Counted from the first letter of the stretch, positions 25,489-43,773 are shown. The stretch is 64,000 nt of DNA from an uncultured Micavibrio sp. (GCA_965216405.1 OZ244161.1:376917-440916); one strand, 5' to 3'. Notes: a model not told the origin generated them from the sequence alone. Numbers and translations: made by a program.

Positions 25489-25517
25489 ATTATACTAGAA
25501 CAGTAAGCGGTACCCAG
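25489..25517 (-). promoter_or_regulatory. pilT upstream element CTGGGTA-N3-CTTACTGT-N5-TATAAT (minus strand)
   Basis: Same ordered blocks and same total length as CTGGGTA-N1-CTTACTGT-N7-TATAAA upstream of pilB (34310-34338). TATAAT lies 30 nt upstream of the pilT start. Confidence 0.4.
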
Positions 25518-25570
25518 AACATCATATTGAGAGTTTGTGCTATTCCCCATGAAGGGTCAATAGAGTCCCC

Positions 25571-26047: not shown

Positions 26048-26054
26048 TGTCTAC

Positions 26055-27110: not shown

Positions 27111-27195
27111 TATTTACCGTTTAGGAAATTACAATTCTATTACATACTACATCGTCACGAGAATCTTACAATTACTATAATACGACAAAAATGAG

Positions 27196-27894
27196 TTATG
27201 CCGCAATAAGTGCTAAAAAAGCCTTTTCCAAATTCTGGTTTTCTCCTTTTTTCTTAAGCATCTCAGGCGTATCAAGAAATATAATCCGATTATTGTGAAA
27301 AACCGCCACCCTGTCACATAGCTCTTCTACATCAGCCAGAATATGGGAGCTCATAAAAACAGATTTTCCCTTATTTCTAACCGCCTGGATGATTTCTTTC
27401 ACTTCTTGCCTTGCTTTAGGATCAAGCCCGCTCATCGGCTCATCAAGAATTAATAGAGGACAATCTACCAGTGTGCTCGCCAACAATCCCAGTTTTTGCC
27501 GCATTCCTTTGGAATAAGTGTTGGTATATTTCCCCAGATAATCCACATTCAGAGAAACACTCTGCGCTGCGCGCTCTATTTCATCATTCGTAATCGTCCG
27601 ATTATACAGCTTCATTGAAAATCGGATGAAATCATATCCATTCAAAAACCATGGCGGTTCAAAGCGTTCAGGTAAATAAGAAATATTCTCGCTGCCACTG
27701 CCGATGATATCGCCGGCATAGCGCTCCCTTAGCCCCAAAATTGTTTTGATTAACGTGGTTTTACCTGCCCCGTTCAGACCAACAAGACCAAAGACCTCGC
27801 CTTCCGTAATATCAAAGCTAACGTTATCAACGATCGTGTTGCCGTCATATCCCGCAGATAATGATTGAACTGAAATAACTGGCGTATTTGTCAT
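27196..27894 (-). CDS. ABC transporter ATP-binding protein
   Basis: Walker A GLNGAGKTT, signature YSKGMRQKL and Walker B LLILDEP. The ATG at 27894 lies 1 nt after the upstream gene's stop. The track start at 28017 overlaps that upstream gene and is unlikely. Confidence 0.88.
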   Translation of the reverse strand: MTNTPVISVQSLSAGYDGNTIVDNVSFDITEGEVFGLVGLNGAGKTTLIKTILGLRERYAGDIIGSGSENISYLPERFEPPWFLNGYDFIRFSMKLYNRTITNDEIERAAQSVSLNVDYLGKYTNTYSKGMRQKLGLLASTLVDCPLLILDEPMSGLDPKARQEVKEIIQAVRNKGKSVFMSSHILADVEELCDRVAVFHNNRIIFLDTPEMLKKKGENQNLEKAFLALIAA

Positions 27895-27895
27895 T

Positions 27896-28558
27896 TTAAC
27901 CCGGCAGGAAAATTCTTGTATCAATGTTAAATCTCTGATGCGCCCTGATTTTAATAGGGAACACCTGATTTGTGAAGGCATCATACCACTTAATCTTGAT
28001 AAATTCCTTTGAGACACGAATATCCAGAATTTCGGGTGGCAGATTATCAGGACCGATTTTTTGACCGTTCAGCCAGACTGCCCAATCCCCTTTTGAGACA
28101 TAGACGATACCACCAAGAGCAATCTCCCTCGGTCCCATTGGCGGCGGCTCCGTATTAACTGTTCCTTCAGGAGGACGGGTCATAAAACCTGCCTTGGCCT
28201 CCATAATCAGGCTGTGCTGACTAGCCGTAAAAAGCAAGGAAGCAAACTCGTTTAGTTTAAGTTCCGGATTTTTTAAGGCAATACGGCGGTACATATCCGC
28301 AATAGCCCGTTCTGCCGGAGATTGTCTTTGAGACGGATCGCCTTCATTAGCAGGAGTCGAGGGGCCGTTGGTATTTATACTTGGCTCGGCGGGATTTGCC
28401 TCCGGGGCAGATTGGTCTGCGGCCATGAGCGACCCTTCGCCGGGCCCACGCACTTCTTGCCCGTCAGCCACCTGAGCATGAGCCGACATGTTACAGGTCA
28501 CAAGGAATCCAAGAAGAAGGAACAAGAGCATAATTTGACGGGAATAATTAATCATCAT
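27896..28558 (-). CDS. exported pilus-locus protein, possibly PilP-like
   Basis: Signal-like MMINYSRQIMLLFLLLGFLVTCNMSAHA and a Pro-rich linker. The C-terminal IALGGIVYVSKGDWAVWLNGQKIGPDN loosely resembles the PilP beta-domain pattern. ATGATGA overlap with the upstream gene. Confidence 0.6.
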   Translation of the reverse strand: MMINYSRQIMLLFLLLGFLVTCNMSAHAQVADGQEVRGPGEGSLMAADQSAPEANPAEPSINTNGPSTPANEGDPSQRQSPAERAIADMYRRIALKNPELKLNEFASLLFTASQHSLIMEAKAGFMTRPPEGTVNTEPPPMGPREIALGGIVYVSKGDWAVWLNGQKIGPDNLPPEILDIRVSKEFIKIKWYDAFTNQVFPIKIRAHQRFNIDTRIFLPG

Positions 28559-29229
28559 TGCACCGGTTCTTCCAGATATTCTTGTGTGGTACCGTTAGAT
28601 AAGGAAATGCTGTCATCCGGTATCATGGTTTGCCAAAAAATCACGGCCCTGCCGGTTACCAGTCCCTCCCGTTGTTCGGTTGTGCCGATCTCTCTTAAAA
28701 TAGGCTGAGTAACATTTACTATGCGCTTTAAACTGACCGATTTGAAAGTCACCTGCCCCGGAAAACCATATTGTAAAAGATATAAAAATTTATAAATGCT
28801 TGTGTCTTCTAATGACTGAAAGTCAAAAGCAATCTGGGTACTGATAAGCTGGTGCCCCACTTCTTTTGCCTGTTCGCTCTCAATTTTAACGGCCGGTTTT
28901 ATTTCATAACGCAAAGAAACAAGGTCTGCCTCATCACTCAGCGATTCCAATAAGGGCTGTATGGCAAATCTATTCTGGCTATCAAAGAACTGTGTTTGCT
29001 GCATCAGAACAAACGTCTCTTTATATTGCGCAAACAAATCCATGCCAGACCGGATATTTTGAATTTTTTCTTCCAAATTCACATTTTCATTTAAGATTGC
29101 CGCATATTCCTGCTTTTTCTGAACCAATCCCCGATTAAGAAAAAAAGTATCAGCCATAACAAAAAACACTGCTATCGCACTTAACAGCAACAAACCGACG
29201 AGCCTTGCAATACCAATGGTTTTTATCAT
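28555..29229 (-). CDS. PilO-like bitopic pilus alignment protein
   Basis: One N-terminal TM (LVGLLLLSAIAVFFVMA) followed by a coiled-coil-like segment and a globular C-terminal part. Position and 4 nt overlaps fit a pilMNOP-type module. The function call rests on architecture only. Confidence 0.6.
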   Translation of the reverse strand: MIKTIGIARLVGLLLLSAIAVFFVMADTFFLNRGLVQKKQEYAAILNENVNLEEKIQNIRSGMDLFAQYKETFVLMQQTQFFDSQNRFAIQPLLESLSDEADLVSLRYEIKPAVKIESEQAKEVGHQLISTQIAFDFQSLEDTSIYKFLYLLQYGFPGQVTFKSVSLKRIVNVTQPILREIGTTEQREGLVTGRAVIFWQTMIPDDSISLSNGTTQEYLEEPVQ

Positions 29230-30872
29230 TCAAATGTCCTGGTTATACTTATTTCCGCGATATATTCTTCGGGCTTGTTGGCTTCGCCTGCGGTATCACC
29301 AACGAAATTTCCCGTGTAACTTAGATCGGCTATCTGACGGGCAACAGACACCTTATAATCAGGTAGTACGCTTTGAAGATTATCCTTAAACTTATTAATT
29401 CTCTGGACACCCTCTTCAAGATTGATCGTATTGGGAAAAGAAAGGAATAAGGCTGCCGATAAAAGGGCATCCATGCTATCCGGGCTACCAGTATAATCTT
29501 TGGCCTGTTCATTAGCATCAAATGATTGTGAACTAAAGATATCCATCACCGGCGCAGCACTCTCTTCTTCCTCTTTAGGAACTTCCTTGCGAAGAACTTG
29601 TACCTCATCCAACCGCAAGTCAGGTCCCATTGCCTTGGCAATCCGGCTAAACAAGATGGTAGGAAAAACCTTTTTATTTTCTATTGATTTGTAGACTTCC
29701 GTAGAATTATTAACAAATAAAAGATCATAGCCGAGACGTTTTTGTTCCATCAGCAACCGCCTGTATTCACTGCGATTTGCATTTAAGGTTTGGTTGGAGA
29801 TTGTATTTTTTTCATTTACGACATATGTCTCTTGCCATTTTTGAAACGTACTAAAGCCAAAATATGCGATGGCTCCTGCCAATAAAACCAGTATGAATGT
29901 GGCAGCACGACGCGGTAAAATAAAACTGTTCAGATTTTTTATATGTAACGGAAGGCGTAATTTTACCTTTTTTGCAAAATAAGCGGCATACAGATGGTCC
30001 GCATAACGGTCATCTTTTTGGTTACTTAACGTGACACCCAATAAAGAGGATAGTTCCTGAATGTTGAAAACTTCAAGCTTGCAATCTATATTAATCAGGT
30101 TGTTGAGAGGCTCTTTCGCACTGTCATTGGCCGCAATAACGATATCAAGCCCGTCTCCTTCTTTATAACCGAGACGGGTTAGATAGCTCATTGTTGCCAC
30201 AAGCTCTGATACGACTTCCTTCGCCCATAAATCTGGCTCGACATCGGTATCAATAATCGGCGTCATACGCGTTAAGGCTAAATTTCCATTACGCGTGACA
30301 ACCTGACGTAAACCACCATTCTCATGCTGCCCGATAAAAGCCGCCCATTGTGAGATTCCACTTCCTCTTTCCCTGATTTTGGAAGAAAGAGTTTTGACCA
30401 TATCTGCCGCTTCAATCGGCAAGAGGTAAACGCCCACAATCCGTGTCATTGATGATTGAACCGCTGCAAGCGTTTTTGATATAGACTCGTTCATGCCTAT
30501 GGCGGCAAAAAGATAATTACCACCACTGCCTTTTTCTTTTCCCTTGCCTTCACCAACAAGTTTTAAAGCGGCACGGATTTTATAATTCGGGAACGCTACA
30601 GATAACCGCCGCTTTAGAACATTCTGGCGATCAACAATACTGACCTTGGGGAGACGTTCTTTTCGGTAATGCTGTTCCACCATGTCATTAACAATAATAA
30701 CAGGGCTGCGGCGGCACTTATCGACGATAATATCGGAAACGGCCGCCGTAAATTCATCTGTTTCCCAGGGAATAAGATCAACATACTTTACCGCGAACTT
30801 ATTAGCGTAAAATATCTGCAGACCTTCATCCTTTAAGATGAGAATGGTTCTGGAAGACGATAATAAAGGCAA
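29226..30872 (-). CDS. PilM-PilN fusion-like (MshI-like) pilus assembly protein
   Basis: 548 aa: a roughly 330 aa cytoplasmic part, a single TM (AATFILVLLAGAIAYFGF), then a roughly 200 aa periplasmic part. Located between pilC and the PilO-like gene. The call rests on architecture and context. Confidence 0.6.
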   Translation of the reverse strand: MPLLSSSRTILILKDEGLQIFYANKFAVKYVDLIPWETDEFTAAVSDIIVDKCRRSPVIIVNDMVEQHYRKERLPKVSIVDRQNVLKRRLSVAFPNYKIRAALKLVGEGKGKEKGSGGNYLFAAIGMNESISKTLAAVQSSMTRIVGVYLLPIEAADMVKTLSSKIRERGSGISQWAAFIGQHENGGLRQVVTRNGNLALTRMTPIIDTDVEPDLWAKEVVSELVATMSYLTRLGYKEGDGLDIVIAANDSAKEPLNNLINIDCKLEVFNIQELSSLLGVTLSNQKDDRYADHLYAAYFAKKVKLRLPLHIKNLNSFILPRRAATFILVLLAGAIAYFGFSTFQKWQETYVVNEKNTISNQTLNANRSEYRRLLMEQKRLGYDLLFVNNSTEVYKSIENKKVFPTILFSRIAKAMGPDLRLDEVQVLRKEVPKEEEESAAPVMDIFSSQSFDANEQAKDYTGSPDSMDALLSAALFLSFPNTINLEEGVQRINKFKDNLQSVLPDYKVSVARQIADLSYTGNFVGDTAGEANKPEEYIAEISITRTFE

Positions 30873-30890
30873 AATAATTATCCCTCTTGG

Positions 30891-32105
30891 TTAGAAGTCA
30901 AGGTTTTCAAAACTTGCATAGACAGGCCCAAAGACCCCAACCGCAATCCAAAGGATCATAACACCAAGTATGGCAGTAAGTGAAGGTTCAATCATGGCGA
31001 TCACTTTTTCGACCTCTTCATCAACATCATTGGTATAAAACTCTGCCACCTGATCTAAAACAACCGTTAAATTACCAGATTCCTCTCCCACTTTGACCAT
31101 CCGAATAACCATAGAAGGAAACTGTCCACTTTTATTAAGGGCCACAGAAAAAGGGTCCCCTTCCTTAACAAATTGCTCCACCCGCTCCAAACTTTCTTTT
31201 ATAACGCGGTTTCCAACTGTCAACGAAGAAGCTTCAAGCGCTTTTAATACGTCGATCCCGCCTGCAAAAAGCGCACCGAATGTTTGTGAAAACCTGGCAA
31301 TATTAATTTTCCGCACCAGAGTCCCCATAACAGGGAGGCGTAAAATCAATGAATCCACTTTATAGGCAAAACCTTCTGATACCTTCCTTAAAATCGAAAG
31401 AAAGATATACACCCCAATAGGAACCGTAAGAATATAAAGCCAGTAAGCAACAAAAAAGTCTGAAACAGCCATCAACGAGGTCGTCGCAAAAGGCAGGTCC
31501 TGGTCCATACTTTCAATAAAACCAACAATTTGCGGTACGACAATTGCCATCATCACCACAATTGTCGCAATCACGGCTATTAAAAGGATCGTCGGGTAGC
31601 GTGTCGCTTTTCGAACGCGGGTCTGCATCACATCCACCCACTTGAGATACTTCACAAGTTGCGCACAGGATGATTTTATATCCCCGTTTTCTTCTCCGGC
31701 AGAAATAAGTGAAACCTGAAGCTTAGAAAAAGCTTTAGGTTGTCTTGCGAGAGCCTCGGAAAACGAACTTCCTTCGGACACATCCCTGTAAATTTCCGAC
31801 ATGATATCGCGGAACGTGGAATTATCCGATGTATCACGGATATCGGCCAGAGAATCCAGCAAAGGAATACCGGCATTTTGCATTTGTTGTAACTGCACAA
31901 AAAATTGGATCAGGTCCCTGACAGTGACCTTTTGCATAAAACCGATAGAAAATACGCCGCTACTGCTTTTGATCTTTTTACAATCAATCAGTTCAAGTCT
32001 GGCGTCCTTTAATTGTTTATATAAGTCAGATTCATTGGCAGCCGACAACACGCCCCGAATAGGCCTGCCGCTGTCATTTATTGCTCTGTACTTATATTTT
32101 TCCAA
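30891..32105 (-). CDS. pilC: type IV pilus platform protein PilC (GspF family)
   Basis: MEKYKYRAINDSGRPIRGVLSAANESDLYKQL and two GspF-type repeats (SFSEALARQPKAF / PFSVALNKSGQFP) with 3 TM segments. Confidence 0.88.
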   Translation of the reverse strand: MEKYKYRAINDSGRPIRGVLSAANESDLYKQLKDARLELIDCKKIKSSSGVFSIGFMQKVTVRDLIQFFVQLQQMQNAGIPLLDSLADIRDTSDNSTFRDIMSEIYRDVSEGSSFSEALARQPKAFSKLQVSLISAGEENGDIKSSCAQLVKYLKWVDVMQTRVRKATRYPTILLIAVIATIVVMMAIVVPQIVGFIESMDQDLPFATTSLMAVSDFFVAYWLYILTVPIGVYIFLSILRKVSEGFAYKVDSLILRLPVMGTLVRKINIARFSQTFGALFAGGIDVLKALEASSLTVGNRVIKESLERVEQFVKEGDPFSVALNKSGQFPSMVIRMVKVGEESGNLTVVLDQVAEFYTNDVDEEVEKVIAMIEPSLTAILGVMILWIAVGVFGPVYASFENLDF

Positions 32106-32128
32106 TGAAAAACCCTGTTAGAAAAGGA

Positions 32129-34234
32129 CTACTTGGTCATATCAACCACTTTACAAGCGCCTTCAAGTGAAATGATTCCCTCTTTGATTTTGAGAATAGC
32201 ATCATCCTTCATATTCTTAAATCCATTCTTCATGGCAGCTTCCTTAATTTGCGCTTTTGTACCGCCAACGGCAACTATATCATCCATTTCCTCATTAAAA
32301 CTCAAGATCTCTGCCAGGGCGATACGCCCTTTATCCCCACGTCCTTCACAAGCCTCACACCCGCCTTGTCTTGATTTGTATATTTCAATTGGCTCATCAA
32401 AATCTAAAAGCTTACATTCCTCCTCGTTCGGCATATAGGCTTCTTTACAACTCGGACATAGCTTTTTCGCCAAACGTTGAGCAAAAATAGAGATAATGTT
32501 ACCGGCAACCATCCCCGGCACCATTCCAAGGTCAAATAATCGTGGCAACGCCCCAAAAGAATCATTGGTGTGAAGGGTCGTATAAACTTGGTGACCTGTC
32601 ATCGCCGCCTGCAGCGCCATTTCGGCGGTTGTTTTATCCCTGATCTCCCCGATAAAGATAATATCAGGGTCTTGCCGCAACATAGCCCGGATACCATCTG
32701 CAAATTCCAAAACCCCTTCTTTCACTGCCGTTTGACGAATCATTGGCAGGGAATATTCAACCGGGTCTTCCAATGTTTGGATATTCACATCCACTGTATT
32801 AATCTCATTCAACATGGAATAAAGACTGGTCGTCTTACCGCTTCCCGTTGGACCGGTAACAATAATGATCCCTTCGGGGCGCTTTTGTGATTTTTTGATT
32901 AATTCGAGATTACTCGGACTAAAGCCCAAGGCAGAAAGCGGCATAATACTGGATTGCTTATCCAGAACCCGCATAACAATATTTTCACCCCAAACAGTAG
33001 GTAAGGAAGACACACGGAAATCAACTTCCCTTCCGCCAACATTCATATTAATACGTCCGTCCTGCGGCGTTAGTTTATCGGCAATATTCAAAGAAGACAT
33101 CAACTTGATCCGCTGCCCAATACCGCTCCAGTGTTTTTTGTGCAATATCTGAGCAGTCGATAACACCCCATCCACACGGTATCTTAAGCGGACAAAGTTT
33201 TCTTCAGGTTCGAAGTGCAAATCAGAGGCCCCGATTTTAACCGCCTCAAAAATAAGAGCATTCACCAAACGGACCAGCGGGTGGCTGTAGGCTTCCTCTT
33301 CGGAAAGGCCGGCAACATCATCCAGATCATCAGCATTTTGGCCTTCAAGCTCTTTTAGAATGGCGCTAACAGAACTGGCATATCCATAAGCGGCATCAAT
33401 GGCATCAGATAAAATTTGCGGGGTCGTCACCGACGGGTGAACTTTTAATTTCCGCGGTATATAACGCTTGAGCATATCAAGCGCCATAACGTCATATGGA
33501 TCGGCCATAGCGACAAGCAATTCGTTTTCATTCATGGAAAACGGCATGATCAGATATTTGGACGCAATCTTTTTATCAATCAGATTCAGGACTTCGGAAT
33601 CAATAATAGTAGATTTAGGGTCGAATACCTGAAAACCCGAAGACTTGGCAAGGAAAGCACTTAAAGTAGCGGCTTCGATAAAGCCCAGATCCACCATGAT
33701 CTCCCCAATCATCTTGTCTGAGACTTTTTGTTCCTGCAGCGCCACATTTAACTGATCTGGAGTGATCAGTTCCTTGGCGACAAGTTCGTCGCCAAAACGC
33801 TCGCGCTTTTTATTTGTTAAGTCGTGCTTTTCAGTCACCTGCAATTCACGGCTTTGTGATTCTCTCGCCTCCGCCTCAGAGGCATCAAATTGTTCCGGTT
33901 CTGCGTTTATTTCCGGTTTTTCTTCCGTTTCCGCTTCTGCCTCTACTTCATAGTCCTCATCTTCCAGCGTGAAATCACCCAAAACCTCTTTTGGCTGGGA
34001 AATCTCATTGTCCGTTGGATCTTCAGCCTCCAATTCAACCATCTCCGGCTCAGGCATCATGTCTTCTGCCGATTTTTCGACCTGCGGATCCATTCTCTCA
34101 GGCTCGGAAATTTGTGTCTTGGAAACATCCTCGACCTCCCTCTTCTTCGGTTGGGAAGGTTCTTTAGCAGGGCCCGTTTTTTTCTTCACAACAGGAGCTG
34201 CAGGTGCCTCAAATGAAATGTCATTATTATCCAT
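32129..34234 (-). CDS. pilB: type IV pilus extension ATPase (PilB/MshE-like) with an acidic N-terminal extension and an MshEN-type domain
   Basis: Walker A GPTGSGKTT, an Asp box, Walker B, and the tetracysteine CPSC...CEAC. A GSPII_E N-terminal domain is preceded by a roughly 145 aa Glu/Asp-rich region. Confidence 0.92.
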   Translation of the reverse strand: MDNNDISFEAPAAPVVKKKTGPAKEPSQPKKREVEDVSKTQISEPERMDPQVEKSAEDMMPEPEMVELEAEDPTDNEISQPKEVLGDFTLEDEDYEVEAEAETEEKPEINAEPEQFDASEAEARESQSRELQVTEKHDLTNKKRERFGDELVAKELITPDQLNVALQEQKVSDKMIGEIMVDLGFIEAATLSAFLAKSSGFQVFDPKSTIIDSEVLNLIDKKIASKYLIMPFSMNENELLVAMADPYDVMALDMLKRYIPRKLKVHPSVTTPQILSDAIDAAYGYASSVSAILKELEGQNADDLDDVAGLSEEEAYSHPLVRLVNALIFEAVKIGASDLHFEPEENFVRLRYRVDGVLSTAQILHKKHWSGIGQRIKLMSSLNIADKLTPQDGRINMNVGGREVDFRVSSLPTVWGENIVMRVLDKQSSIMPLSALGFSPSNLELIKKSQKRPEGIIIVTGPTGSGKTTSLYSMLNEINTVDVNIQTLEDPVEYSLPMIRQTAVKEGVLEFADGIRAMLRQDPDIIFIGEIRDKTTAEMALQAAMTGHQVYTTLHTNDSFGALPRLFDLGMVPGMVAGNIISIFAQRLAKKLCPSCKEAYMPNEEECKLLDFDEPIEIYKSRQGGCEACEGRGDKGRIALAEILSFNEEMDDIVAVGGTKAQIKEAAMKNGFKNMKDDAILKIKEGIISLEGACKVVDMTK

Positions 34235-34393: not shown

Positions 34394-34470
34394 TGGCGCG
34401 CCCGGGAGGATTCGAACCCCCAACCTTCTGATCCGTAGTCAGATACTCTATCCAGTTGAGCTACGGGCGC
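34394..34470 (-). tRNA. tRNA-Arg (anticodon ACG), CCA encoded
   Basis: Reverse complement GCGCCCGTAGCTCAACTGGATAGAGTATCTGACTACGGATCAGAAGGTTGGGGGTTCGAATCCTCCCGGGCGCGCCA. Perfect 7 bp acceptor stem, anticodon loop CTACGGA, and a GTTCGAATC T-loop. Confidence 0.95.
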
Positions 34471-34718
34471 AGACTTCAGACACAGAAGTATTTGCCTGAA
34501 TGCGCAGGCACCCTACAATAAGCATGGCAAAGATAGCAAGTTAAAAAAGTGCAAAAGCGTTCGGTTTTTATCCTCCCGCTTTTTACGAAAAAAAGTGTCT
34601 TTTTCTTGACTCATGATGGGAATTAAGGTGAGTTAAGGCGTTTTAGTACTAATATTGAATCATTTAAGGCACCCTTTATGTGTGCCGGATGGTCCTTAAC
34701 AAATCGGGCGAACCTGTC

Positions 34719-35945
34719 ATGGAGAAATCCTTTATTAAAAACAATGGCCTACGAGGGCTTCTTGCAACAATTCTATGCATTGGCTTTGCTTCGACAGCCA
34801 TGGCGCAAATTGATATGGGGCAAAAACCCGTTTTAGTCATTACCAATAAGCAAATGGCGCCGACGAATCCCGGCCCGATTTACAGCAATCCCGTGCGCGC
34901 CCCTGAAATCACCCAACAACAAATCGCCAGTGCTGCCTATTACGGCCCGGAATCGACGATGGTTGGCCGCAAGCTGGATGAAATCAATAAGGATTACTTT
35001 GCGCTACAATCCTCTATCAACCGCATGTCAGAAAAATTAAGGTCAATTCAAACCCGAAACCGGGATGTTGCTGCAGGTTATTATGCGAGTATTGCGACTA
35101 TTAACACGCAGTTACAAAGCGGTACAACCCCTGGAAACCCTCGCCTTATTGCAAAACTGGATGTGGCCCAAAACAATCTTGATGTTCTGGCCAATAATAT
35201 TAATGCCCTCAACAATATGGCCGTCGAGCTTGCAAATGCGGCTTCCCAAGCAACCTTTTTGGTTGAAAATGTGCGCGCAGCCTTTAGCCTCTCCGGCGCT
35301 ATCGAGGAAGATCATGCCCGTCTGGCCATGATTGAAGATCAAGTCAATAATACAATGGTCACAATTGACCGTCTTTTAAATAACGTCAATGATGACATTA
35401 CCCGCACCAATGCTTACGTTGCTTCGGAAAGAAATGACCTGCGGACATTGGCATTGGCTGTTTCCAATGGCGATCTTTACGGCAAGAACCTGTCTAATAA
35501 CCCGTTCTCCCAGGCGCCGACAAGCCCGATGATGCAACAGGCAAGCTACGGCGCTGCCCCTGCAGCTCCTGTTATGCAGGCCCCACAAATGATGGGCGCA
35601 CCAGGTATGCCTATGCCTTCTGCGCCAATGGCAACACCTTCTTCTCCGCGTCCGTTGGCCAAGATTAAATTCGATAAAGCCAATATTGACTATGAACAGC
35701 CTATTTACATGGCAGTACAAGAAGCGCTTCAGCGTTATCCCAATGCCCGTTTTGAGTTGATTGCCGTTCATCCGACCAGCGGAAATCCTGCGCAGGCGGC
35801 CATAGAAAGCACACGGGCGCGCCGTAATGCGGAGCGCGTGTTGCGGACCTTGACCCAAATGGGCGTGTCTTTAGATCAGGTTGATCTATCCAACTCAGCC
35901 AGTCCTGAAGCTCAAACAAGTGAAGTTCACTTATACGTAAGGTAA
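34719..35945 (+). CDS. exported coiled-coil protein with a degenerate OmpA-like C-terminal domain
   Basis: From the ATG at 34719: MEKSFIKNNGLRGLLATILCIGFASTAMAQ, signal-like. A long Asn/Ala/Leu-rich helical region and a Pro/Met-rich linker follow. The C-terminal IKFDKANIDYEQ...ELIAVHP...RARRNAERVLRTLTQMGV resembles OmpA_C. Confidence 0.65.
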   Translation: MEKSFIKNNGLRGLLATILCIGFASTAMAQIDMGQKPVLVITNKQMAPTNPGPIYSNPVRAPEITQQQIASAAYYGPESTMVGRKLDEINKDYFALQSSINRMSEKLRSIQTRNRDVAAGYYASIATINTQLQSGTTPGNPRLIAKLDVAQNNLDVLANNINALNNMAVELANAASQATFLVENVRAAFSLSGAIEEDHARLAMIEDQVNNTMVTIDRLLNNVNDDITRTNAYVASERNDLRTLALAVSNGDLYGKNLSNNPFSQAPTSPMMQQASYGAAPAAPVMQAPQMMGAPGMPMPSAPMATPSSPRPLAKIKFDKANIDYEQPIYMAVQEALQRYPNARFELIAVHPTSGNPAQAAIESTRARRNAERVLRTLTQMGVSLDQVDLSNSASPEAQTSEVHLYVR

Positions 35946-35949: not shown

Positions 35950-36942
35950 GTGAAACAGCTTCGCCAATTGGGGACGATTATTGTTTTATTTGTTGTCCTT
36001 ATTCTTATCGGCTTACTGGCAAGAAATTATCTTGAAGGAACAGATATAAGTTCTGTATCCACACCGGTTAAAACCACCGAAGATGATCAAAAACTCTTTA
36101 AAAAAGCAGATTATATTGCCGCCCTTCCCCATTTTGGCCCCCTAATCCATACGCAAGATATATCCGTGACTTATGCTGACGGCAAAGCGATGGCAACATT
36201 GAGCAATGCGGAAGACTCCAAAATCCGCGTTGGGCAAAAAGTCATTTTATTCAACCAGAAGCACGAGATACTTCCCCTTGCCGGAAAAGTAGAAATTGTC
36301 GATGGCGAACACATCATTATCGCTCTGCCGGAAGAAACGGATACGGCGCTGTTAAGCCCGGACCTGCAAGTGATCACTTTAAAAACAGTGGGGACAAAAC
36401 GCATCCCTTTAAATGCCACATTGCAGGACAATGAAGGAAAAGCATATGTATGGGTAGCCGAAGCCACTGAAAACGGGCATAAAAAGCGCCCCGTTAAAAA
36501 ACACGAAATCGATATCACCTTAAAAGACGACCATTATCTTGATCCCGGCTTTTCGATTAATGCGATGGATTGGGTCATTCTTAATCCGGATGAAAAACTC
36601 CGCGCTGATAAAAAATACCGTGTTGCTGAAACAAAACTTGAGGCGCCCCTACATGATCCCGTCCGGCAGGCTTGGGGAGAGTTTGAGTTAAGACGCCTCG
36701 AAGAGCAACAAGAAGAACTCTTACAACGTTACCTGAATTGTAAAAATGGCGTGCCAAATACATATGCAGATGTGGCCCAAGGCACCGCCTCGCTGGCAGA
36801 TGGCAGTACCTCAAGCAGTTGTGGCGCCTCTGAAGAAATCCTGAATGATCCGGTGGCCATCTTTAATTCCCTGATTAACAACCTTGATAATGCAGGCGGC
36901 GCTTCCGCCTGTGGCAACGTAAGTTCTGCCTGCGGCCCGTAA
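35950..36942 (+). CDS. membrane-anchored hypothetical protein, possibly with a HlyD-like beta-barrel
   Basis: GTG start and one N-terminal TM (LGTIIVLFVVLILIGLLA). Segments such as RVGQKVILFNQ...GKVEIVDGEHIIIALPE and GKAYVWVAE loosely recall periplasmic adaptor barrels. The functional call is weak. Confidence 0.55.
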   Translation: MKQLRQLGTIIVLFVVLILIGLLARNYLEGTDISSVSTPVKTTEDDQKLFKKADYIAALPHFGPLIHTQDISVTYADGKAMATLSNAEDSKIRVGQKVILFNQKHEILPLAGKVEIVDGEHIIIALPEETDTALLSPDLQVITLKTVGTKRIPLNATLQDNEGKAYVWVAEATENGHKKRPVKKHEIDITLKDDHYLDPGFSINAMDWVILNPDEKLRADKKYRVAETKLEAPLHDPVRQAWGEFELRRLEEQQEELLQRYLNCKNGVPNTYADVAQGTASLADGSTSSSCGASEEILNDPVAIFNSLINNLDNAGGASACGNVSSACGP

Positions 36943-36943
36943 A

Positions 36944-37405
36944 TCAGGTTTTTAAATGACGGAATAAGCCGGAAACTCCCTCTTCAATAATATCCAACAC
37001 ATCTTCAAATGTCTGCGGATTGCCGTAATATGGATCGGGAACGCCCTGCCCCTGATAAATATCACAATAATCCACAAATCTTGTGAGAGAGGCTTTTGTG
37101 TTTGCAGGCATGATATCTTGCAAGATTGTATAATGTCCCTCATCCATCGCGATAATCATATCAAAATTTGTAAAATCATCGATGCCCACTTTTCGGGCGA
37201 TCTGCCCATCCATTGAAATACCGCGGTCTTTGGCTGCACGCATACCACGCGGGTCAGGGGGTTCACCGATATGATAGCCATGCGTACCTGCCGACTCAAT
37301 TAAAAAGCTAAGGTGACCGCCATGCGCTTTCACATAGTGCTTCATCACCGCCTCTGCCGCTGAAGACCGGCAAATATTCCCCGTACAGACAAAAAGTATT
37401 TTCAT
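36944..37405 (-). CDS. low-molecular-weight protein-tyrosine phosphatase
   Basis: MKILFVCTGNICRSSAAEAV contains the CX5R(S) P-loop, and DPYYG lies near the C-terminal end. I prefer the ATG at 37405. Confidence 0.88.
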   Translation of the reverse strand: MKILFVCTGNICRSSAAEAVMKHYVKAHGGHLSFLIESAGTHGYHIGEPPDPRGMRAAKDRGISMDGQIARKVGIDDFTNFDMIIAMDEGHYTILQDIMPANTKASLTRFVDYCDIYQGQGVPDPYYGNPQTFEDVLDIIEEGVSGLFRHLKT

Positions 37406-37493
37406 GCGATGTTTCCCTATTTTAACAAGCATAAGCCAGAAAGCTTGGGCGTTATATCTTGATTATTCGCGGGGAATATTGAAGGATGGGAAC

Positions 37494-38315
37494 ATGACAA
37501 AACTCCCTTATGATCCCGACCAGATACAAGTCAGGTTAGCGATCAACACAAATGAAATCAAGGCTGCACAAGCCTTACGATATAAAGTGTTTTACGATGA
37601 GTATGGCGCCACGCCAACCGAAGAAATGAAACGTGAGAAACGCGACATTGATTCTTATGATGATATTACAGACCATCTGGTGGTATTAGATCGTGACCTG
37701 CCTGAAGGACCGGATCAAATTATCGGCACCTACCGTCTCCTGCGCCGGGAGATCGCCGAGAAGCACGGCCAGTTTTACACCAGCGATGAATATGATATCC
37801 AACCCCTACTTGATTACGATAAAGATTTGCTTGAATTGGGTCGCTCCTGTGTCTTGCCCTTATATAGGACACGGCCGGTCTTACAAAAGCTCTGGCAGGG
37901 AATTGCCCATTATGTGGCCGACCATAATATTGGCCTGATGTTTGGCTGCGCAAGTTTGCGCGGAACAGATATACAGGCGCTCTCCCAACAATTAGCGTAT
38001 TTATATCATTATCATAAAGCCCCGCGTCATCTATGCCCAAAAGCCCTTGCTAGCCGTTATGTCGATATGAATCTTCATGATAAAGAATCGATTGATGTCA
38101 AAGCCGTTTTCAGCTCCATGCCGCCATTGATTAAAGGCTACATACGACTGGGGGCTTATATCGGAGAAGGCGCAGTCGTGGATGAGCAATTTAATACCAC
38201 CGATGTCTGTATCGTCATGCCGACCTCTCTGGTCAAAGAAAAATATATCAAACATTATGAGCGCGTGACGAAAAAGGTCATTCCCGCAGGAGAGCGCATG
38301 GAAAGCGTTCAATAA
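37494..38315 (+). CDS. olsB: ornithine-acyl-ACP N-acyltransferase-like GNAT (OlsB family)
   Basis: VRLAINTNEIKAAQALRYKVFYDEYGATP...RDIDSYDDITDHLVVLD...IGTYRLL matches the OlsB/hemolysin-like GNAT family pattern. An acyltransferase gene follows directly. ATG at 37494 with GAAGGA upstream. Confidence 0.8.
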   Translation: MTKLPYDPDQIQVRLAINTNEIKAAQALRYKVFYDEYGATPTEEMKREKRDIDSYDDITDHLVVLDRDLPEGPDQIIGTYRLLRREIAEKHGQFYTSDEYDIQPLLDYDKDLLELGRSCVLPLYRTRPVLQKLWQGIAHYVADHNIGLMFGCASLRGTDIQALSQQLAYLYHYHKAPRHLCPKALASRYVDMNLHDKESIDVKAVFSSMPPLIKGYIRLGAYIGEGAVVDEQFNTTDVCIVMPTSLVKEKYIKHYERVTKKVIPAGERMESVQ

Positions 38316-39122: not shown

Positions 39123-39153
39123 ACCTATCAACATGACAAACGCGGAGAAAATT

Positions 39154-39375
39154 ATGGTTGAGATTAGCCCAGACGAACTTGTAAAAGTACAGGCCTATTT
39201 AAGGTCAAAATTTGATAATCCCGGACTGGCGGTCAGACCCCGTTCACAGACGGCAGATTCTATTGAAGTGTTGTTGAATGGTGAATTTATCGGCCTTGTT
39301 TATAAAGACACGGATGAGGGCGAAACGTCTTATGATTTCAACATGTCAATTTTAGACATTGATTTACCAGAGTAA
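39154..39375 (+). CDS. DUF3126-family small protein
   Basis: ISPDELVKVQAYLRSKFDNPGLAVRPRSQTADSIEVLLNGEFIGLVYKDTDEGETSYDFNMSIL matches the alphaproteobacterial DUF3126 pattern. GGAG lies 6 nt upstream of the ATG at 39154. An alternative ATG lies at 39133. Confidence 0.7.
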   Translation: MVEISPDELVKVQAYLRSKFDNPGLAVRPRSQTADSIEVLLNGEFIGLVYKDTDEGETSYDFNMSILDIDLPE

Positions 39376-39389: not shown

Positions 39390-39827
39390 ATGACTCGCCT
39401 CTTCCTCATCACCGCTATTATACTCCCCCTTATTTACAATGCAGCATGGGCACAAAGCGCATTAAGGTTTCGCGCACCTGAAGGCATTAAAGAAATACGG
39501 CTGCTAAATCACATAAAGAAAACCCGCCAAATTCCTGATATTCAGTACATTATTGCGCCCACAGACTTAAACAATGATCTGATAAATGAATATATTATCA
39601 GACCGAAATCAAACCGAGATTGTAGCGGTAGCCGCCTTTGTCCGTATTACGTAATCGCCCTCCAAGAGCGCACGCCTATCACACTTGGAAAATTTAATGC
39701 CCATAAAATAGTGGTTTCTTCTAAAAAAACCTACGGAGTTCGGGATATCATCGTCTATAATGATCATTACAACGATTTCAAAACCAACACGGTCACTTGG
39801 CACCCGTATGAGTTTAAGTATAAGTAA
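39390..39827 (+). CDS. exported hypothetical protein, family P (paralog of 40612-41241)
   Basis: Signal-like MTRLFLITAIILPLIYNAAWAQ. Shares TDLNNDLINEYII / C..LCPYYVI / YGVRDIIVYND blocks with the 40612 product. Confidence 0.65.
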   Translation: MTRLFLITAIILPLIYNAAWAQSALRFRAPEGIKEIRLLNHIKKTRQIPDIQYIIAPTDLNNDLINEYIIRPKSNRDCSGSRLCPYYVIALQERTPITLGKFNAHKIVVSSKKTYGVRDIIVYNDHYNDFKTNTVTWHPYEFKYK

Positions 39828-39897
39828 TCCAAATCAGTAAAACAGGGCACTTTTGCTCCTGATCAATAAAAAAGGCTATAATTTATAAGGTGAGATA

Positions 39898-40602
39898 ATG
39901 GGAAAATTACATCTGATAAAAATATTAGCCTGCCGGACCTACGGTCTTGTAGTCTTACTGAGCCTTTTAAGCTTGAGCGTCCCTGTTCAGGCGCAGGGTG
40001 ATATTGAGTTAACACCAGCCCCGCCGTCGGGCGCTGCAACGCCGGAACTTTCGGGCTGCGCAACTGATACGTGGGCCGCCATGGTGAATCAGGCCGTGAT
40101 GCAGACCCGGCGCGAAGACATTATGAATAAACGTTATATTGTGAAACCAGACTCTGTCCTGCAATATAGCTGTTTTAGAGATCCATTACGCCGCTTTGCA
40201 TGGGAAATCCCCCGTATTTTCAGTAACGGTGACCAATGGTCCAACAGAGAAGTCGATATCCTCGCGGATGAGCCCCTTTACATCAAAATTTATCAAAAAG
40301 ATTATCCAGAGGTTGAGGAGAATTACAACATTACCGACTGGCAAACACCTTCACTGGAAGAAGCCCTGACATTAATGATCGATGAAGCGATGGTACGGTA
40401 TATTAACCAGCACTATGATCATCGGATTTTAGCCGGCGCAACAGGATTGGGCCAAGCCTCTGACGTCTGTGTCAGCATGGAACAGATGTGGCAATCGGCA
40501 AAATGTAAAAACTTCGATGGAACGCAGGTATTTTATACCTTTGAGGATTTGATCAATTTCGACCCGCGAGAATTCCCCCCCAATATGCCGTGCACCCCGT
40601 AA
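39898..40602 (+). CDS. exported Cys-containing hypothetical protein, family A (paralog of 42435-43367)
   Basis: The signal peptide ends in VPVQAQ. Shares C.T..W..M.....M...RE..M.N...I.KPDSVL.Y.CF and C..M...W..AKC.NF blocks with the 42435 product. Confidence 0.7.
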   Translation: MGKLHLIKILACRTYGLVVLLSLLSLSVPVQAQGDIELTPAPPSGAATPELSGCATDTWAAMVNQAVMQTRREDIMNKRYIVKPDSVLQYSCFRDPLRRFAWEIPRIFSNGDQWSNREVDILADEPLYIKIYQKDYPEVEENYNITDWQTPSLEEALTLMIDEAMVRYINQHYDHRILAGATGLGQASDVCVSMEQMWQSAKCKNFDGTQVFYTFEDLINFDPREFPPNMPCTP

Positions 40603-40611
40603 GGAAAGAAA

Positions 40612-41241
40612 ATGACACCTATGAAAGACTGCATATCATCACCAAAAGCTTTTTATAGCGCATTTTTTGTTCTCTTCTTGAACTTGACCCTTTTACTCCC
40701 CCTTCCCCCAGCACAAGCCCAAACGCTGGATTACTATTATTGTAATGGTCCCCAAGAACCTTCCTGCATTCTGGCTTTTCAAAAAATCGCGCAATTGCGT
40801 AACCCGATGAGCAAAGAAAAAAACAGATTTTTTAATAACGGCATCCATAATATGACAACCCAAGAAGGGGAACTGATTGCCTTTCCAGCTATCTATGTGA
40901 CAGAAACGGATATTGACAGAGACGGTTATAATGAAATCATTGCAAAAGTAACTGAAGCTACCGAGGAAGAAGAAGGACTATTTTGCCCTGAAACCAAGGC
41001 GGGAGTAAAACAGTGCCCGCATTTTATTATTCAGGACCGGAACATCAGCGGGGAAGAAAGCAACTTGAAAAATTTCCGGATCATGGGCCCGATATATGCC
41101 TACTTCATCGGACTGTCCACCAACGAACGCTTTGGCGGGTACCGCTCTCTGGTCGCGTACAGGGATACGAATTTTAAAACGTTTGCTGTCTACCAATATG
41201 ACAAAAAAACGGATAAGTACTTCCGTATTGAGGGGCCATAA
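40612..41241 (+). CDS. exported hypothetical protein, family P (paralog of 39390-39827)
   Basis: The hydrophobic N-terminus ends in PPAQAQ. Carries the blocks TDIDRDGYNEIIA / C......CPHFII / FGGYRSLVAYRD. Confidence 0.65.
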   Translation: MTPMKDCISSPKAFYSAFFVLFLNLTLLLPLPPAQAQTLDYYYCNGPQEPSCILAFQKIAQLRNPMSKEKNRFFNNGIHNMTTQEGELIAFPAIYVTETDIDRDGYNEIIAKVTEATEEEEGLFCPETKAGVKQCPHFIIQDRNISGEESNLKNFRIMGPIYAYFIGLSTNERFGGYRSLVAYRDTNFKTFAVYQYDKKTDKYFRIEGP

Positions 41242-41246
41242 ACAAT

Positions 41247-42365
41247 ATGAAATTTGTACGCCTCTTCTTAGTTTTACTTTTTGTGCTGATGGCAGATACC
41301 GCCCTCTCACCGGCAAAAGCGCAGGATATGTGTGAACGTGGCGGCGGTGTAATTCCCCCGCCTACAGACGTAGGTATTTCCAGTAACATGGGACCGCGTA
41401 ATTGTGCAGGATGTAGTACAAACCACCCCGGAACGGATTATTTAACACCAGATGGTACACGCGTCGCTGGTCCGCCTGAGGGCTGTGTAAACACCTCCGG
41501 CGGCAGCAGCACACCAGCCCAACCCGGCGCAGACCCGAATGGGAACAGCGGCTACGGGTACCGGACCTATTTCGACTGCGGTAATGGTATTACAATTCAA
41601 TATAGTCACTTAAACAACGCCAATTCTTATGATCCTGCTTCAAACACAATAACTACGGGGTGTTCGGGTGCTGGCGGGTGTCACCTTGATTACATTATCC
41701 GTGTAGATGGAGTCCCTGTGGATGCCCAATGTGTGGTTGGCAATGTTTCTACTGACATCAACGATTACAGCTATGGCAACAGTTCAACCCGCCATAACGC
41801 TGCCTGCCCTATCGGCGGCACCGTCAATCTGTGCGACGAAGCAACTCAACAAGCATTAATCGATCACTCAAATCAGGTTTTCTCAGGCAATCCGCCCACA
41901 AGGGTACCGCCAGCGCCTACCGATCCGGAACCTCCTGGACCTGGACCTGGACCCGGACCTGGACCTGGACCCGGACCTGGACCCGGACCTGGACCTGGAC
42001 CCGGACCCGGACCTGGACCTGGACCTGGACCTGGACCTGGGCCTGGGCCTGGGCCCGGACCTGGACCCGGACCCGGACCTACACCGCCAGCGCCATGTAC
42101 CAATTCAACTTGTATCGTGCAGCCCATGATTGATATATCCAATAATGAATCAGCTGAGTATGATACATCTGATCCGCATCTCGATTTAACGGAACCGCCT
42201 GATGCTAGCGCGTCCCCGCCGATATCCTGCGGCGCGCGTGAGACGAACGTTATTGTCGAAAGGCAGGAAGAATCTCAAACACGGGAATATAATGATTCTT
42301 TTTGTACCAATCAGGGATGTCACTATGAAAACAATGCCTCCGGCACCGCAGAATGTGTACAATAG
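41247..42365 (+). CDS. exported M23 (LytM)-like peptidase-fold protein with a (Pro-Gly)24 linker and a Cys-rich C-terminal module
   Basis: The signal peptide ends in SPAKAQ. NHPGTDY (HxxxD), DGTRVAGPPEG, GYGYRTYFDCGNGITIQYSHL and GCSGAGGCHLDYIIRVDGVPVD follow the M23 order of motifs, but HxH reads HLD. A PG repeat and CTNQGCHY...C follow. Confidence 0.75.
   Translation: MKFVRLFLVLLFVLMADTALSPAKAQDMCERGGGVIPPPTDVGISSNMGPRNCAGCSTNHPGTDYLTPDGTRVAGPPEGCVNTSGGSSTPAQPGADPNGNSGYGYRTYFDCGNGITIQYSHLNNANSYDPASNTITTGCSGAGGCHLDYIIRVDGVPVDAQCVVGNVSTDINDYSYGNSSTRHNAACPIGGTVNLCDEATQQALIDHSNQVFSGNPPTRVPPAPTDPEPPGPGPGPGPGPGPGPGPGPGPGPGPGPGPGPGPGPGPGPGPGPGPGPGPTPPAPCTNSTCIVQPMIDISNNESAEYDTSDPHLDLTEPPDASASPPISCGARETNVIVERQEESQTREYNDSFCTNQGCHYENNASGTAECVQ
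41934..42080 (+). repeat. 147 nt tandem hexanucleotide repeat (CCN GGA)n encoding about 24 Pro-Gly dipeptides
   Basis: Read directly: cctggacctggacccgga... with only third-position variation (cct/ccc, gga/ggg). Confidence 0.95.
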
Positions 42366-42434
42366 TGCGTAAAGAAATAACCATGTTTGCCAAAGGACGG
42401 CTTTTTTGGGTAAAATAATGAAGAAGGAAAATTC

Positions 42435-43367
42435 ATGAAAAAAACATTGTTTCTATTAAGCTTGGGTCTGTTAGGTATCCTGCCGCTTACGGTGAAGGCG
42501 CAGGACATTGCTCCGCAACCTTGCGATACAGGTTTTTGGAATCAAATGAAGTCCAAAGCATGGATGGAAGCCGAACGCGAAATCATGCAAAATCAGAATC
42601 TGATTTTTAAACCGGACAGTGTTCTGGAATATACCTGTTTTGACCAGTTTGCTGCCATTAACGCCTGGCAGGGCGGGGATATTTTTGTTCACTCCAATTA
42701 TTTCGGATCGGAAATCATTACACGCGGATCGACTTACGCCATGGAAAAAGCCATGGAAAATGTGGTTTACAATGCCTTGCTTGCTTATAGAAACCTGAGT
42801 TTTAACAACCAGTATTTAAGCGGTCGGGCGCAGGATATGGGCCTGAGTAACCGAAACAGTGTCAGCGCTGCGGACGGTGATTATTTTAAAAAACCTGAAC
42901 AGAGTAATGCCTCCTATACTTGTACAACAATGCAGGATGTCTGGAAGGCAGCCAAATGTGCCAACTTTATCGATAACGCTGCTGTGGCAGGGACAGATGG
43001 GTTTTATCCCTTTGCAACTTTAGCCGGGTTTAACGGTTCCCCTGAAGTGGGCGGCTATGAAGATAAAACTGAAGATGTACGTAAATGGCCGGAGAGTCTG
43101 GCCTGTGGAACATCAACCGGGGTACACAGCTGGACAGACCAGATTGTTTCTGCAGAAAACAAAAACCAGGATCACTACCAGTTCCAGACTCCCTTGGGTC
43201 AGATTTACGTCGATGTCGGTGACCGTCTTGAACCCGGAAATTGTTCAGGTCCCGGGAATGAGGCTATAAAAACAGGTGTTCAGGTCATCACCAGAGAGGG
43301 TGAACACCCTGACGGTGTCTGTACCAATCCTGGATGTAGTTATCAAGAAGACGGTACCTGTTCTTAA
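42435..43367 (+). CDS. exported Cys-containing hypothetical protein, family A (longer paralog), ending in the CTNPGCSY...C motif
   Basis: MKKTLFLLSLGLLGILPLTVKAQ is signal-like. Family A blocks are shared with 39898-40602. The C-terminal GVCTNPGCSYQEDGTCS resembles the end of the 41247 product. Confidence 0.7.
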   Translation: MKKTLFLLSLGLLGILPLTVKAQDIAPQPCDTGFWNQMKSKAWMEAEREIMQNQNLIFKPDSVLEYTCFDQFAAINAWQGGDIFVHSNYFGSEIITRGSTYAMEKAMENVVYNALLAYRNLSFNNQYLSGRAQDMGLSNRNSVSAADGDYFKKPEQSNASYTCTTMQDVWKAAKCANFIDNAAVAGTDGFYPFATLAGFNGSPEVGGYEDKTEDVRKWPESLACGTSTGVHSWTDQIVSAENKNQDHYQFQTPLGQIYVDVGDRLEPGNCSGPGNEAIKTGVQVITREGEHPDGVCTNPGCSYQEDGTCS

Positions 43368-43368: not shown

Positions 43369-43773
43369 CTATTTACTCGCTTTTTTGATTGTTTCGATGA
43401 TTTTATCTTTGCCCTGCGGTTTTAAGGCAAGCAGCTTGGCCATCACTTCCATATTCTTCTGCTGATTAATCGTTTCGTTTTTATCTGCCTCTGATCGCGG
43501 AGGCTGCTGCGTTTGTTGCGGTGCGGCTGCCTGTTTTTCTTTAGGGGGATTTACCGCTTTGGAGGTCCTCGGCGTGGATCGCTTTGGCTTTAAATCATCC
43601 TCTACCCCCAATTTTTTCATAATTTCAGGGCTGGACGCTATCATACGGCGGATTTTATGGATGACAGCAGGATCCATCTGCCCTCGCGCCTTGCGCATTG
43701 CCTCAAAAGCCTTATCAAGTATACGCTGTCGTTTTTCGGTTATTTGTGGGGTTTTCGGTGGTTGTTCTTCCAC
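43369..43773 (-). CDS. hypothetical Lys/Gln/Pro-rich protein (134 aa)
   Basis: GTG start with AAGGA 6 nt upstream. Low-complexity basic composition with no recognisable domain. Confidence 0.5.
   Translation of the reverse strand: MEEQPPKTPQITEKRQRILDKAFEAMRKARGQMDPAVIHKIRRMIASSPEIMKKLGVEDDLKPKRSTPRTSKAVNPPKEKQAAAPQQTQQPPRSEADKNETINQQKNMEVMAKLLALKPQGKDKIIETIKKASK

Follow-up and report, generated by a model that had tools for sequence, protein, structure and literature searches.

The window analyzed here, a 64,000-nucleotide (nt) stretch of DNA from an uncultured Micavibrio sp. (GCA_965216405.1 OZ244161.1:376917-440916), includes a block of five consecutive plus-strand genes which encode exported, cysteine-containing proteins (39390-43367; Table 1). 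Genes 1 and 3 encode paralogs of one family, termed P and P', and genes 2 and 5 encode those of another, termed A and A', whereas gene 4 joins an M23-like peptidase domain to a C-terminal module (C) shared with A'. The AN family (the N-domain of A and A'), the C family and the P family, as well as the block which these make up, have no counterpart among described families, folds or systems in the libraries searched, and are new. The M23 domain of gene 4 is predicted to be a natural His-to-Asp metal-site variant of a known enzyme family. Within the reach of the peptide scan described below, the block appears to be confined to a Micavibrio-like lineage.

All five open reading frames (ORFs) were confirmed with exactly the coordinates given in an initial annotation of the window. 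As that annotation described, each product has a signal-peptide-like N-terminus ending in AQ, and each contains Cys in its mature form. As read from the sequence, these N-termini run from a short basic n-region through a hydrophobic core to A-x-A↓Q, and no lipobox is present in any of the five. Because Sec signal peptides are combined with many conserved cysteines, the five products are predicted to be Sec-exported, Cys-rich and disulfide-rich proteins which fold in the periplasm or beyond. Within the block the genes are separated by 70, 9, 5 and 69 nt, and the gaps upstream, from olsA through gene 1, are 10-14 nt. The intergenic gaps of the block contain no terminator-like site on the plus strand; the only two such sites within 39390-43367 lie inside gene 2 (40200-40215) and inside gene 5 (42662-42675). 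A promoter-like site is located just 5' of gene 5.

Table 1. The five-gene block, its domains and other features of the window (positions in nt from the first letter of the window; the arrow marks the putative signal-peptide cleavage site; Cys are counted in the mature protein; HMM, hidden Markov model).
Feature	Position	Strand	Length (aa)	Description
Gene 1 (P)	39390..39827	+	145	Small exported protein; AWA↓Q; 2 Cys, CxxxxxC pair
Gene 2 (A)	39898..40602	+	234	Exported, AN only; VQA↓Q; 5 Cys
Gene 2, AN domain	40054-40563	+		Residues 53-222; AN HMM E=1.7e-35
Gene 3 (P')	40612..41241	+	209	Second, longer P paralog; AQA↓Q; 4 Cys, extra N-terminal Cys pair; DIDRDGYNEII
Gene 4	41247..42365	+	372	AKA↓Q; 16 Cys
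Gene 4, M23 domain	41328..41888	+		Residues 28-214
Gene 4, linker	41934..42080	+		Hexanucleotide repeat (CCTGGA)x24.5 encoding (PG)n; TRF and sequence
Gene 4, C module	42093..42359	+		Residues 283-371; Cys-rich, ...FCTNQGCHYE...C
Gene 5 (A')	42435..43367	+	310	VKA↓Q; 9 Cys
Gene 5, AN domain	42507-43097	+		Residues 25-221
Gene 5, C module	43119-43364	+		Residues 229-310
DUF3126 gene	39133..39375	+		Upstream boundary; Pfam E=8.3e-28; no signal peptide
Gene r	43369..43773	-	134	Downstream boundary; small basic protein, low-complexity, no signal peptide
Exported or membrane protein gene	34680-35945	+	421	Signal peptide, coiled-coil-like region, Pro/Met/Ala-rich stretch, OmpA-like-looking C-terminus
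Exported or membrane protein gene	35950-36942	+	330	Cys/Ser/Gly-rich tail
Pilus cluster	23190-34234	-		MSHA-type type IV pilus or type II secretion system (T2SS)-like
MshE-like ATPase gene	32129-34234	-		With MshEN
PilC/T2SSF-like gene	30891-32105	-		Pilus cluster
Three unannotated genes	27896-30872	-		Pilus cluster
Tetratricopeptide repeat (TPR) protein gene	26055-27110	-		Pilus cluster
PilT-like ATPase gene	24314-25459	-		Pilus cluster
tRNA gene	34397-34470	-		Rfam RF00005
tRNA gene	58255-58328	-		Rfam RF00005

The two paralog families proposed in the initial annotation both exceed shuffled controls, and all the motifs quoted there for families P and A are present in the order described. A and A' are aligned at E=2e-18 by BLASTP and at z=29.7 by Smith-Waterman comparison (0/1000 shuffles as high). 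P and P' are more distant, with a BLASTP E value of 0.002 and a Smith-Waterman z of 5.7, a score reached by one of 1000 shuffles. By the same shuffle test no similarity is detected between P and A or between P' and A' (z about 1).

The A family contains the invariant motif EREIMQNQNLIFKPDSVLEYTCF. Its homologs number 353 among 90% clusters, where the names given by the sources are always 'hypothetical', and an HMM scan of 1.84 billion 50% clusters yielded 892 representatives, which carry no taxonomy. An AlphaFold2 model of A' built from 122 sequences (predicted local distance difference test (pLDDT) score 83.2, predicted template modeling (pTM) score 0.59) replaced an earlier one from 28 sequences, which was too poor (pLDDT 64). 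In the later model, a helical N-domain (AN, residues ~25-221) is followed by a beta-hairpin module (C, ~229-310). Domain HMMs detect no C module in gene 2. Use of the A' model for the fold search suggested in the initial annotation gave no Foldseek match at E<=0.001 in PDB or BFVD, and the A-family sequence profile had 0 matches at E<=10 against PDB. Pfam has no match to any of 122 A-family members. The statement of the initial annotation that the non-M23 parts belong to no nameable family was borne out: Pfam, NCBIfam, PADLOC and PHROGs have no match for genes 1, 2, 3 and 5, and PDB sequences have no significant one. AN-C proteins therefore have no described family or fold relative in the libraries searched. 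The N-terminal extensions of ten longer A homologs include no further enzyme domain, and two of them, viewed by eye, are low-complexity.

Gene 5 has eight conserved Cys and one more. The Cys counts of mature gene 2 and mature gene 5 products are both odd, and the candidates for the unpaired residues, C232 of gene 2 and C224 of gene 5, are located at the homologous end of the AN domain. Through these residues, the two paralogs might be disulfide-bonded to each other or to some other partner.

The P family was assembled from the ORFs of related loci, as a word-indexed homolog search gave only three proteins. Iterated HMMs seeded from P or from P' recovered equal totals, 76 ORFs in 56 related loci each. 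The alignment has the core IAxxDLNxDGxxExI...C...C. Gene 1 contains a single FG-GAP-like loop, TDLNNDLINEYII. The Ca-loop consensus Dx(D/N)xDGxxD/E fits both the family consensus DLNxDGxxE and the DIDRDGYNE of P', and the corresponding loop of P in the window is DLNNDLINE, in which Leu replaces the Gly of the consensus. The P loop is, by its resemblance to FG-GAP, probably a Ca2+-binding one. FG-GAP Pfam models are significant for 0/47 P members (weak matches in 4/47, the best at E=0.0013), and FG-GAP-type matches of the P profile in PDB, including integrin alpha-V and an FG-GAP 'hemolysin-related' structure, all have E>=0.12. There is one FG-GAP-like motif per P protein of about 120-170 mature residues, where a propeller is made from multiple repeats. 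Because one motif is contained in ~120 mature residues, P alone would be unable to form a seven-bladed propeller.

The M23-like fold noted for gene 4 in the initial annotation was confirmed by profile comparison. The single sequence matches Pfam Peptidase_M23 at E=5.9e-4 and 20.4 bits, under the cut-off of 28.7 bits, whereas a family profile from 17 sequences matches solved M23 peptidases over the whole catalytic domain with E values down to 1.4e-11 (3slu, 6muk, ShyA and zoocin A). PF01551 is precomputed on three of the listed gene 4 homologs. The HxxxD zinc-binding motif is present as H60-P-G-T-D64, aligned to HTGID of 3slu, and H60 and D64 are each conserved at >=90%. The catalytic His of YxHL is also present (Y119-S-H121-L, aligned to YAHL). 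The position of HxH is occupied by H146-L-D148, aligned to HLH, and the Asp is invariant in 17/17 homologs. The domain is rich in conserved cysteines. In LytM-type enzymes, zinc has its third ligand in the second His of HxH. Because Asp can ligate zinc, the metal site of gene 4 is read as a variant but functional one, which would make its catalytic set complete, and we infer that this domain would be a zinc endopeptidase cutting peptidoglycan peptide links near the scaffold described below.

The M23 domain of gene 4 is followed by the (PG)n linker, at whose position homologs have unrelated low-complexity linkers. The (CCTGGA) repeat also yields spurious long ORFs at 41831-42133 (+) and 41873-42142 (-). 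The exact gene 4 protein is not in a collection of 15 billion proteins, where the other four block proteins are present; a varying number of repeat units or a difference in assembly may account for this. Over its last ~85 residues, gene 4 shows homology to the C module of A' (...VCTNPGCSYQ...C), with z=5.5, 0/1000 shuffles and reciprocal HMM matches; the C module of gene 4 is matched by the XC HMM at E=1.7e-28 and cross-matched by the AC HMM at 5e-4. This kinship is a third relation within the block, in addition to the two in the initial annotation. No SH3b, LysM or other Pfam domain was found in this C-terminal module.

Related loci were collected by a pattern scan of one genome per species with two near-invariant family peptides, a procedure which distant relatives would escape. 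The scan gave 69 loci, among them one in the complete genome of M. aeruginosavorus HCB189; nearly all come from metagenome-assembled genomes (MAGs) or isolates which carry the label Micavibrio, Alphaproteobacteria or Pseudobdellovibrionaceae (the NCBI placement of Micavibrio). The initial annotation had suggested looking for co-occurrence of these genes as neighbors, and the gene neighborhood is indeed strongly conserved in other genomes. When AN, C and M23 were counted by domain HMMs over 51 distinct complete loci, AN and C were almost always present twice each. The P family is represented in 45 of the 51 loci, and the first gene of the block, where detected, is nearly always P. The commonest architecture is P / AN-C / AN-C, with slashes marking gene boundaries. 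Others are P / P' / M23-AN-C / AN-C and P / M23-AN / P' / C or M23-C / AN-C; that of the window, P / AN / P' / M23-C / AN-C, occurs also in loci L010 and L013. A second P is detected in 13/51 loci, each of an expanded or split type, and in no plain P / AN-C / AN-C locus. A single AN-C is found in M. aeruginosavorus (L072) and also in L065 and L055. The interval between the DUF3126 gene and waaA takes many architectures and ranges from 1.6 to 6.7 kb.

Sequence comparisons with these loci indicate how the block of the window was derived. The AN of gene 2 has a mean BLAST score of 98.6 bits to the first ANs of other loci and 54.8 to the last ANs, and the C module of gene 4 has 37.6 bits to the first C (including fused M23-AN-C) and 24.1 to the last. 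The ortholog of gene 5 is the last AN-C. Together with the domain census, these scores show that the A/A' duplication is ancient and that genes 2 and 4 are the two parts of a fissioned first AN-C protein carrying M23, with the second P gene in between. The initial annotation had viewed the block as a duplicated P-A module with a hydrolase-like gene inserted and as a set built around this enzyme. These views are not sustained: the census and orthology show an old AN-C/AN-C pair preceded by P, M23 is fused to the C half of the first AN-C and is no free-standing gene, and the enzyme, being optional (M23 in 18/51 loci), does not form the center of the set.

Sister lineages have fused M23-AN-C and M23-AN proteins. 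Where M23 is fused upstream of AN, HxH is kept (HIHY, HLHY or HLHF) in 10/15 domains, and no match to the motif was obtained in L001, L020, L023, L037, L039 and L053. Among domains with a readable motif, the canonical HxH belongs to M23 upstream of AN, and HLD to M23 joined to C. Elsewhere, other domains are found on the first AN-C protein, namely a right-handed Beta_helix/NosD domain in L060 (1e-28) and Pectate_lyase_4 in L008 (2e-5). Enlarged first AN-C proteins of 744-1139 aa are encoded at L060:6427-9846, L008:6580-8814, L045:6680-9709 and L050:5166-8327, and in some lineages such proteins have inserts of ~700 aa without a recognizable domain, which divide AN in two. The median identity to the window protein is 38.5% for A', 40.7% for OlsA and 44.9% for LpxK. 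The degree of conservation of A' is thus close to that of OlsA and LpxK, and so A' is under purifying selection. P and the first A are faster-evolving, with median identities of 33-34%.

One divergent AN-C homolog is located away from the usual locus (L073:6931-13145, Micavibrio sp. chromosome OZ246421.1), where its neighbors encode an HldE-like bifunctional kinase/adenylyltransferase, a FlgO-like protein and a Peptidase_S11 DD-carboxypeptidase.

Wherever a locus extends far enough for its surroundings to be judged, the DUF3126 gene lies on one side of the block and a convergent small basic gene, r, followed by waaA-lpxK-lpxL, on the other. The DUF3126 gene is directly 5' of the block in 58 loci and is probably outside the exported set. 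Gene r is convergent with gene 5, with stop codons 1 nt apart, and is kept in 49 loci; its product has no match in Pfam, NCBIfam, PADLOC or PHROGs. Upstream of the block, olsB and olsA are found in related loci, MshE-like and PilC-like genes in many of them, and the 421-aa protein in 22 of the 25 loci with enough flank. The 421-aa protein and the 330-aa protein are both conserved, and neither has a Pfam match. Overall, ~20 kb is collinear across the order, including the MSHA-type pilus ATPase, phosphatase and NAD genes and two unannotated exported proteins. Because of this collinearity, adjacency to lipid genes is regarded as backbone synteny and weak functional evidence, and assignment of a function from adjacency to ornithine-lipid/lipid A genes or to MSHA-type pilus genes was down-weighted.

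Further features of the window flanks are as follows. An ORF at 23190-24317 adjoins the PilT-like gene of the pilus cluster and is of similar size. The tRNA gene at 34397-34470 lies between the pilus cluster and the conserved plus-strand gene run. The listed ATG of the OlsB-like ORF (37404-38315) overlaps a divergent low-molecular-weight phosphatase gene; homologs are about 273-290 aa long, so that the true OlsB start is probably an internal Met (MTKLPYDP..., near nt 37494).

Expression data are available for the cultured predator M. aeruginosavorus. In strain ARL-13, genes for an N-acyltransferase and an acyltransferase are followed by a 240-bp gene, the 855-bp hypothetical gene GMV_1563, the 369-bp hypothetical gene GMV_1564, kdtA and lpxK (PMC3189940). 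The positions match those of L072, and the 240-bp and 369-bp genes agree with L072 in length as well. GMV_1563 is taken as AN-C because of where it lies, in a strain other than that of L072 but of the same species, and the A-family ORF of L072 is 948 bp from the first start codon as compared with 855 bp annotated for GMV_1563. The expression index of GMV_1563 is 9.2 in the attack phase and 13.4 in the attachment phase, and that of GMV_1564, at the position and with the length of gene r, is 43.5 and 6.6, respectively, and thus strongly biased to the attack phase (PMC3189940, supplement 4). The flanking ols, kdtA and lpxK genes have values of 0-0.3 in attack and 0.6-3.5 in attachment, and only 33% of genes are transcribed in the attack phase (PMC3189940). 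The values for GMV_1563 therefore indicate that the core gene is real, expressed and regulated apart from its lipid-gene neighbors. A flagellar role, hinted at by the FlgO-like neighbor in L073, was rejected, as flagellar genes are off in the attachment phase, when GMV_1563 is on.

Taken as a whole, we tentatively favor, at somewhat less than an even chance, a reading in which the block specifies a lineage-specific envelope or surface scaffold which tethers wall-degrading domains, with a leaning to action at the surface or on prey. The conserved core consists of one small P protein and the two ancient paralogous AN-C proteins. The second AN-C (gene 5) is the constant partner and the first AN-C the variable carrier, whose load depends on the lineage: an M23 peptidase, a right-handed beta-helix/pectate-lyase-like domain or long helical inserts. 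AN-C and P would form a non-enzymatic scaffold, and the shared C module would dock the gene 4 and gene 5 products on the same partner or structure, so that M23 on its flexible (PG)n tether might cleave peptidoglycan peptide links within reach of the scaffold. The content of two AN and two C is near-constant despite shifting gene boundaries, and the M23-AN-C and M23-AN fusions tie M23, AN and C together in function. Action would take place at the cell surface or in a predator-prey contact zone rather than in housekeeping of the cell's own sacculus; this leaning, the weakest step of the scheme, is based on the lineage restriction, the recruitment of beta-helix/pectate-lyase-like domains and transcription in the attack phase.

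Several points weigh against this reading. As M23 is missing in 33 of the 51 loci, and also in the block of the cultured predator M. aeruginosavorus, wall cleavage cannot be the core function. The HLD change could instead make the M23 domain of gene 4 an inactive, regulatory LytM-type domain. No signal for outer-surface secretion or anchoring was found in the block products, and the conservation level of A' is more like that of a housekeeping envelope component than that of a fast-evolving weapon. In addition, a predatory lifestyle is assumed for most of the lineages represented by MAGs, it is only by fusion/fission and co-occurrence that the five proteins are judged to interact physically, and any activity or location given to AN, C or P is likewise a prediction.

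In a narrower form of the proposal, which is unlikely, the AN-C/P set would be the surface or contact-site scaffold of an epibiotic predator, presenting interchangeable lytic heads (M23, beta-helix depolymerase) on tethers. The lytic heads of such a disulfide-stabilized scaffold would breach or hold the prey envelope. A somewhat stronger candidate, although still on the unlikely side, is a housekeeping periplasmic scaffold which would position or regulate the M23 endopeptidase for growth of the cell's own sacculus, for division or for vibrioid shape. There are models for such an arrangement, as LytM factors regulate amidases and Csd1, Csd2 and Csd3 act with non-enzymatic partners. It is in keeping with Sec signal peptides as the only export signals, with conservation of A' at the OlsA/LpxK level, with a fixed chromosomal position among envelope genes, with the surroundings of the divergent L073 homolog near HldE-like, FlgO-like and Peptidase_S11 genes, and with the somewhat higher expression of GMV_1563 in the growth (attachment) phase. 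GMV_1563 transcripts are, however, also present in the attack phase, in which cells do not grow and the flanking genes for envelope biosynthesis are practically silent; by the near-invariant-peptide scan, which distant relatives would escape, the family is found in genomes labelled Micavibrio or in unclassified alphaproteobacterial/proteobacterial MAGs, and the domains gained by the carrier, of the beta-helix/pectate-lyase-like kind, do not act on murein. The absence of M23 from most loci cuts both ways: it agrees with the housekeeping explanation, and the optional nature of the enzyme also speaks against it.

The position of the block, always between olsBA-DUF3126 and waaA-lpxK-lpxL in loci long enough to judge, together with the short gaps from olsA through gene 1 and the lack of intergenic plus-strand terminator-like sites, might instead indicate factors for outer-membrane lipid or lipopolysaccharide assembly acting with OlsB/OlsA, WaaA, LpxK and LpxL. 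This is improbable: the adjacency belongs to backbone synteny of ~20 kb in which unrelated pilus, phosphatase and NAD genes take part, the expression of GMV_1563 is very unlike that of the lipid genes, the block proteins have no likeness to lipid-binding or Lpt/Mla/Lol families, and the fusion partners are M23 and beta-helix domains and not lipid enzymes. Slightly more improbable is the absence of any joint function, with fast-evolving lineage-specific exported proteins gathered in a permissive, variable spot of the conserved backbone. The varied length and architecture of the DUF3126-waaA interval and the retention of one AN-C gene only in L072, L065 and L055 would be explained in this way, but the content of two AN and two C survives fusions and fissions, 51 distinct loci have the same domains in unchanging order, there are M23-AN-C fusion proteins, and A' is under strong purifying selection with near-invariant motifs. 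The scaffold with a leaning to surface or prey action thus remains the tentatively favored reading.

In the literature searched, no description of the block proteins was found, nor was one of the molecular mechanism by which M. aeruginosavorus attaches to or feeds on prey. In a 2025 review on contact-dependent predation, only the 2011 genome paper is cited for M. aeruginosavorus (PMC12428579). With protein families which lack annotation and fold relatives and are under purifying selection, with a gene expressed at the matching position in the cultured predator and with repeated recruitment of wall- or glycan-degrading domains, the block is a concrete candidate for a role in Micavibrio attachment or feeding. 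If it belongs to a predator apparatus, Micavibrio-type 'leeching' would thereby gain its first proposed molecular component. Even if its role is a housekeeping one, it provides three new domain families, a His-to-Asp variant of M23 and a series of fusions and fissions which can guide interaction studies.

The block resembles several known systems in part. In carrier-plus-variable-domain proteins such as polymorphic effectors and tailspike-like depolymerases, the likeness is one of architecture only: AN and C are joined to M23, beta-helix and pectate-lyase-like domains, but no recognizable markers of type VI secretion, contact-dependent inhibition or the C-terminal domain of type IX secretion substrates, and no immunity-like gene, are present, and the block occupies one fixed locus per genome and is enzyme-free in many lineages. 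An origin of the block as a defense system or from a phage was rejected, as PADLOC and PHROGs scans gave no match. The P consensus DLNxDGxxExI resembles the Ca2+ loop of FG-GAP/integrin-alpha repeats and the Ca site of the PilY1 propeller; unlike FG-GAP proteins, P has one motif only, all its matches are below significance, and P of the window has no loop Gly.

Gene 4 shares HxxxD, the His of YxHL and the first His of HxH with M23 peptidases of the lysostaphin/LytM type (Neisseria NMB0315 3slu, Vibrio ShyA 6ue4, zoocin A 5kvp), and differs from them in HLD instead of HxH, in its Cys-rich domain and in a C module unlike SH3b or LysM. Lysostaphin and zoocin A consist of a catalytic domain, a linker and a C-terminal non-catalytic module, and gene 4 resembles them in this modular layout. 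Lysostaphin-type bacteriolysins combine M23 with SH3b; in gene 4, the place of SH3b is taken by the C module common to AN-C proteins. In Helicobacter pylori, Csd1, Csd2 and Csd3 constitute an M23 cell-shape network with non-enzymatic partners in a curved bacterium. No sequence kinship between this network and AN, C or P was detected, and the block is likened to it in that a predicted periplasmic M23 enzyme is combined with lineage-specific non-enzymatic proteins in a curved bacterium.

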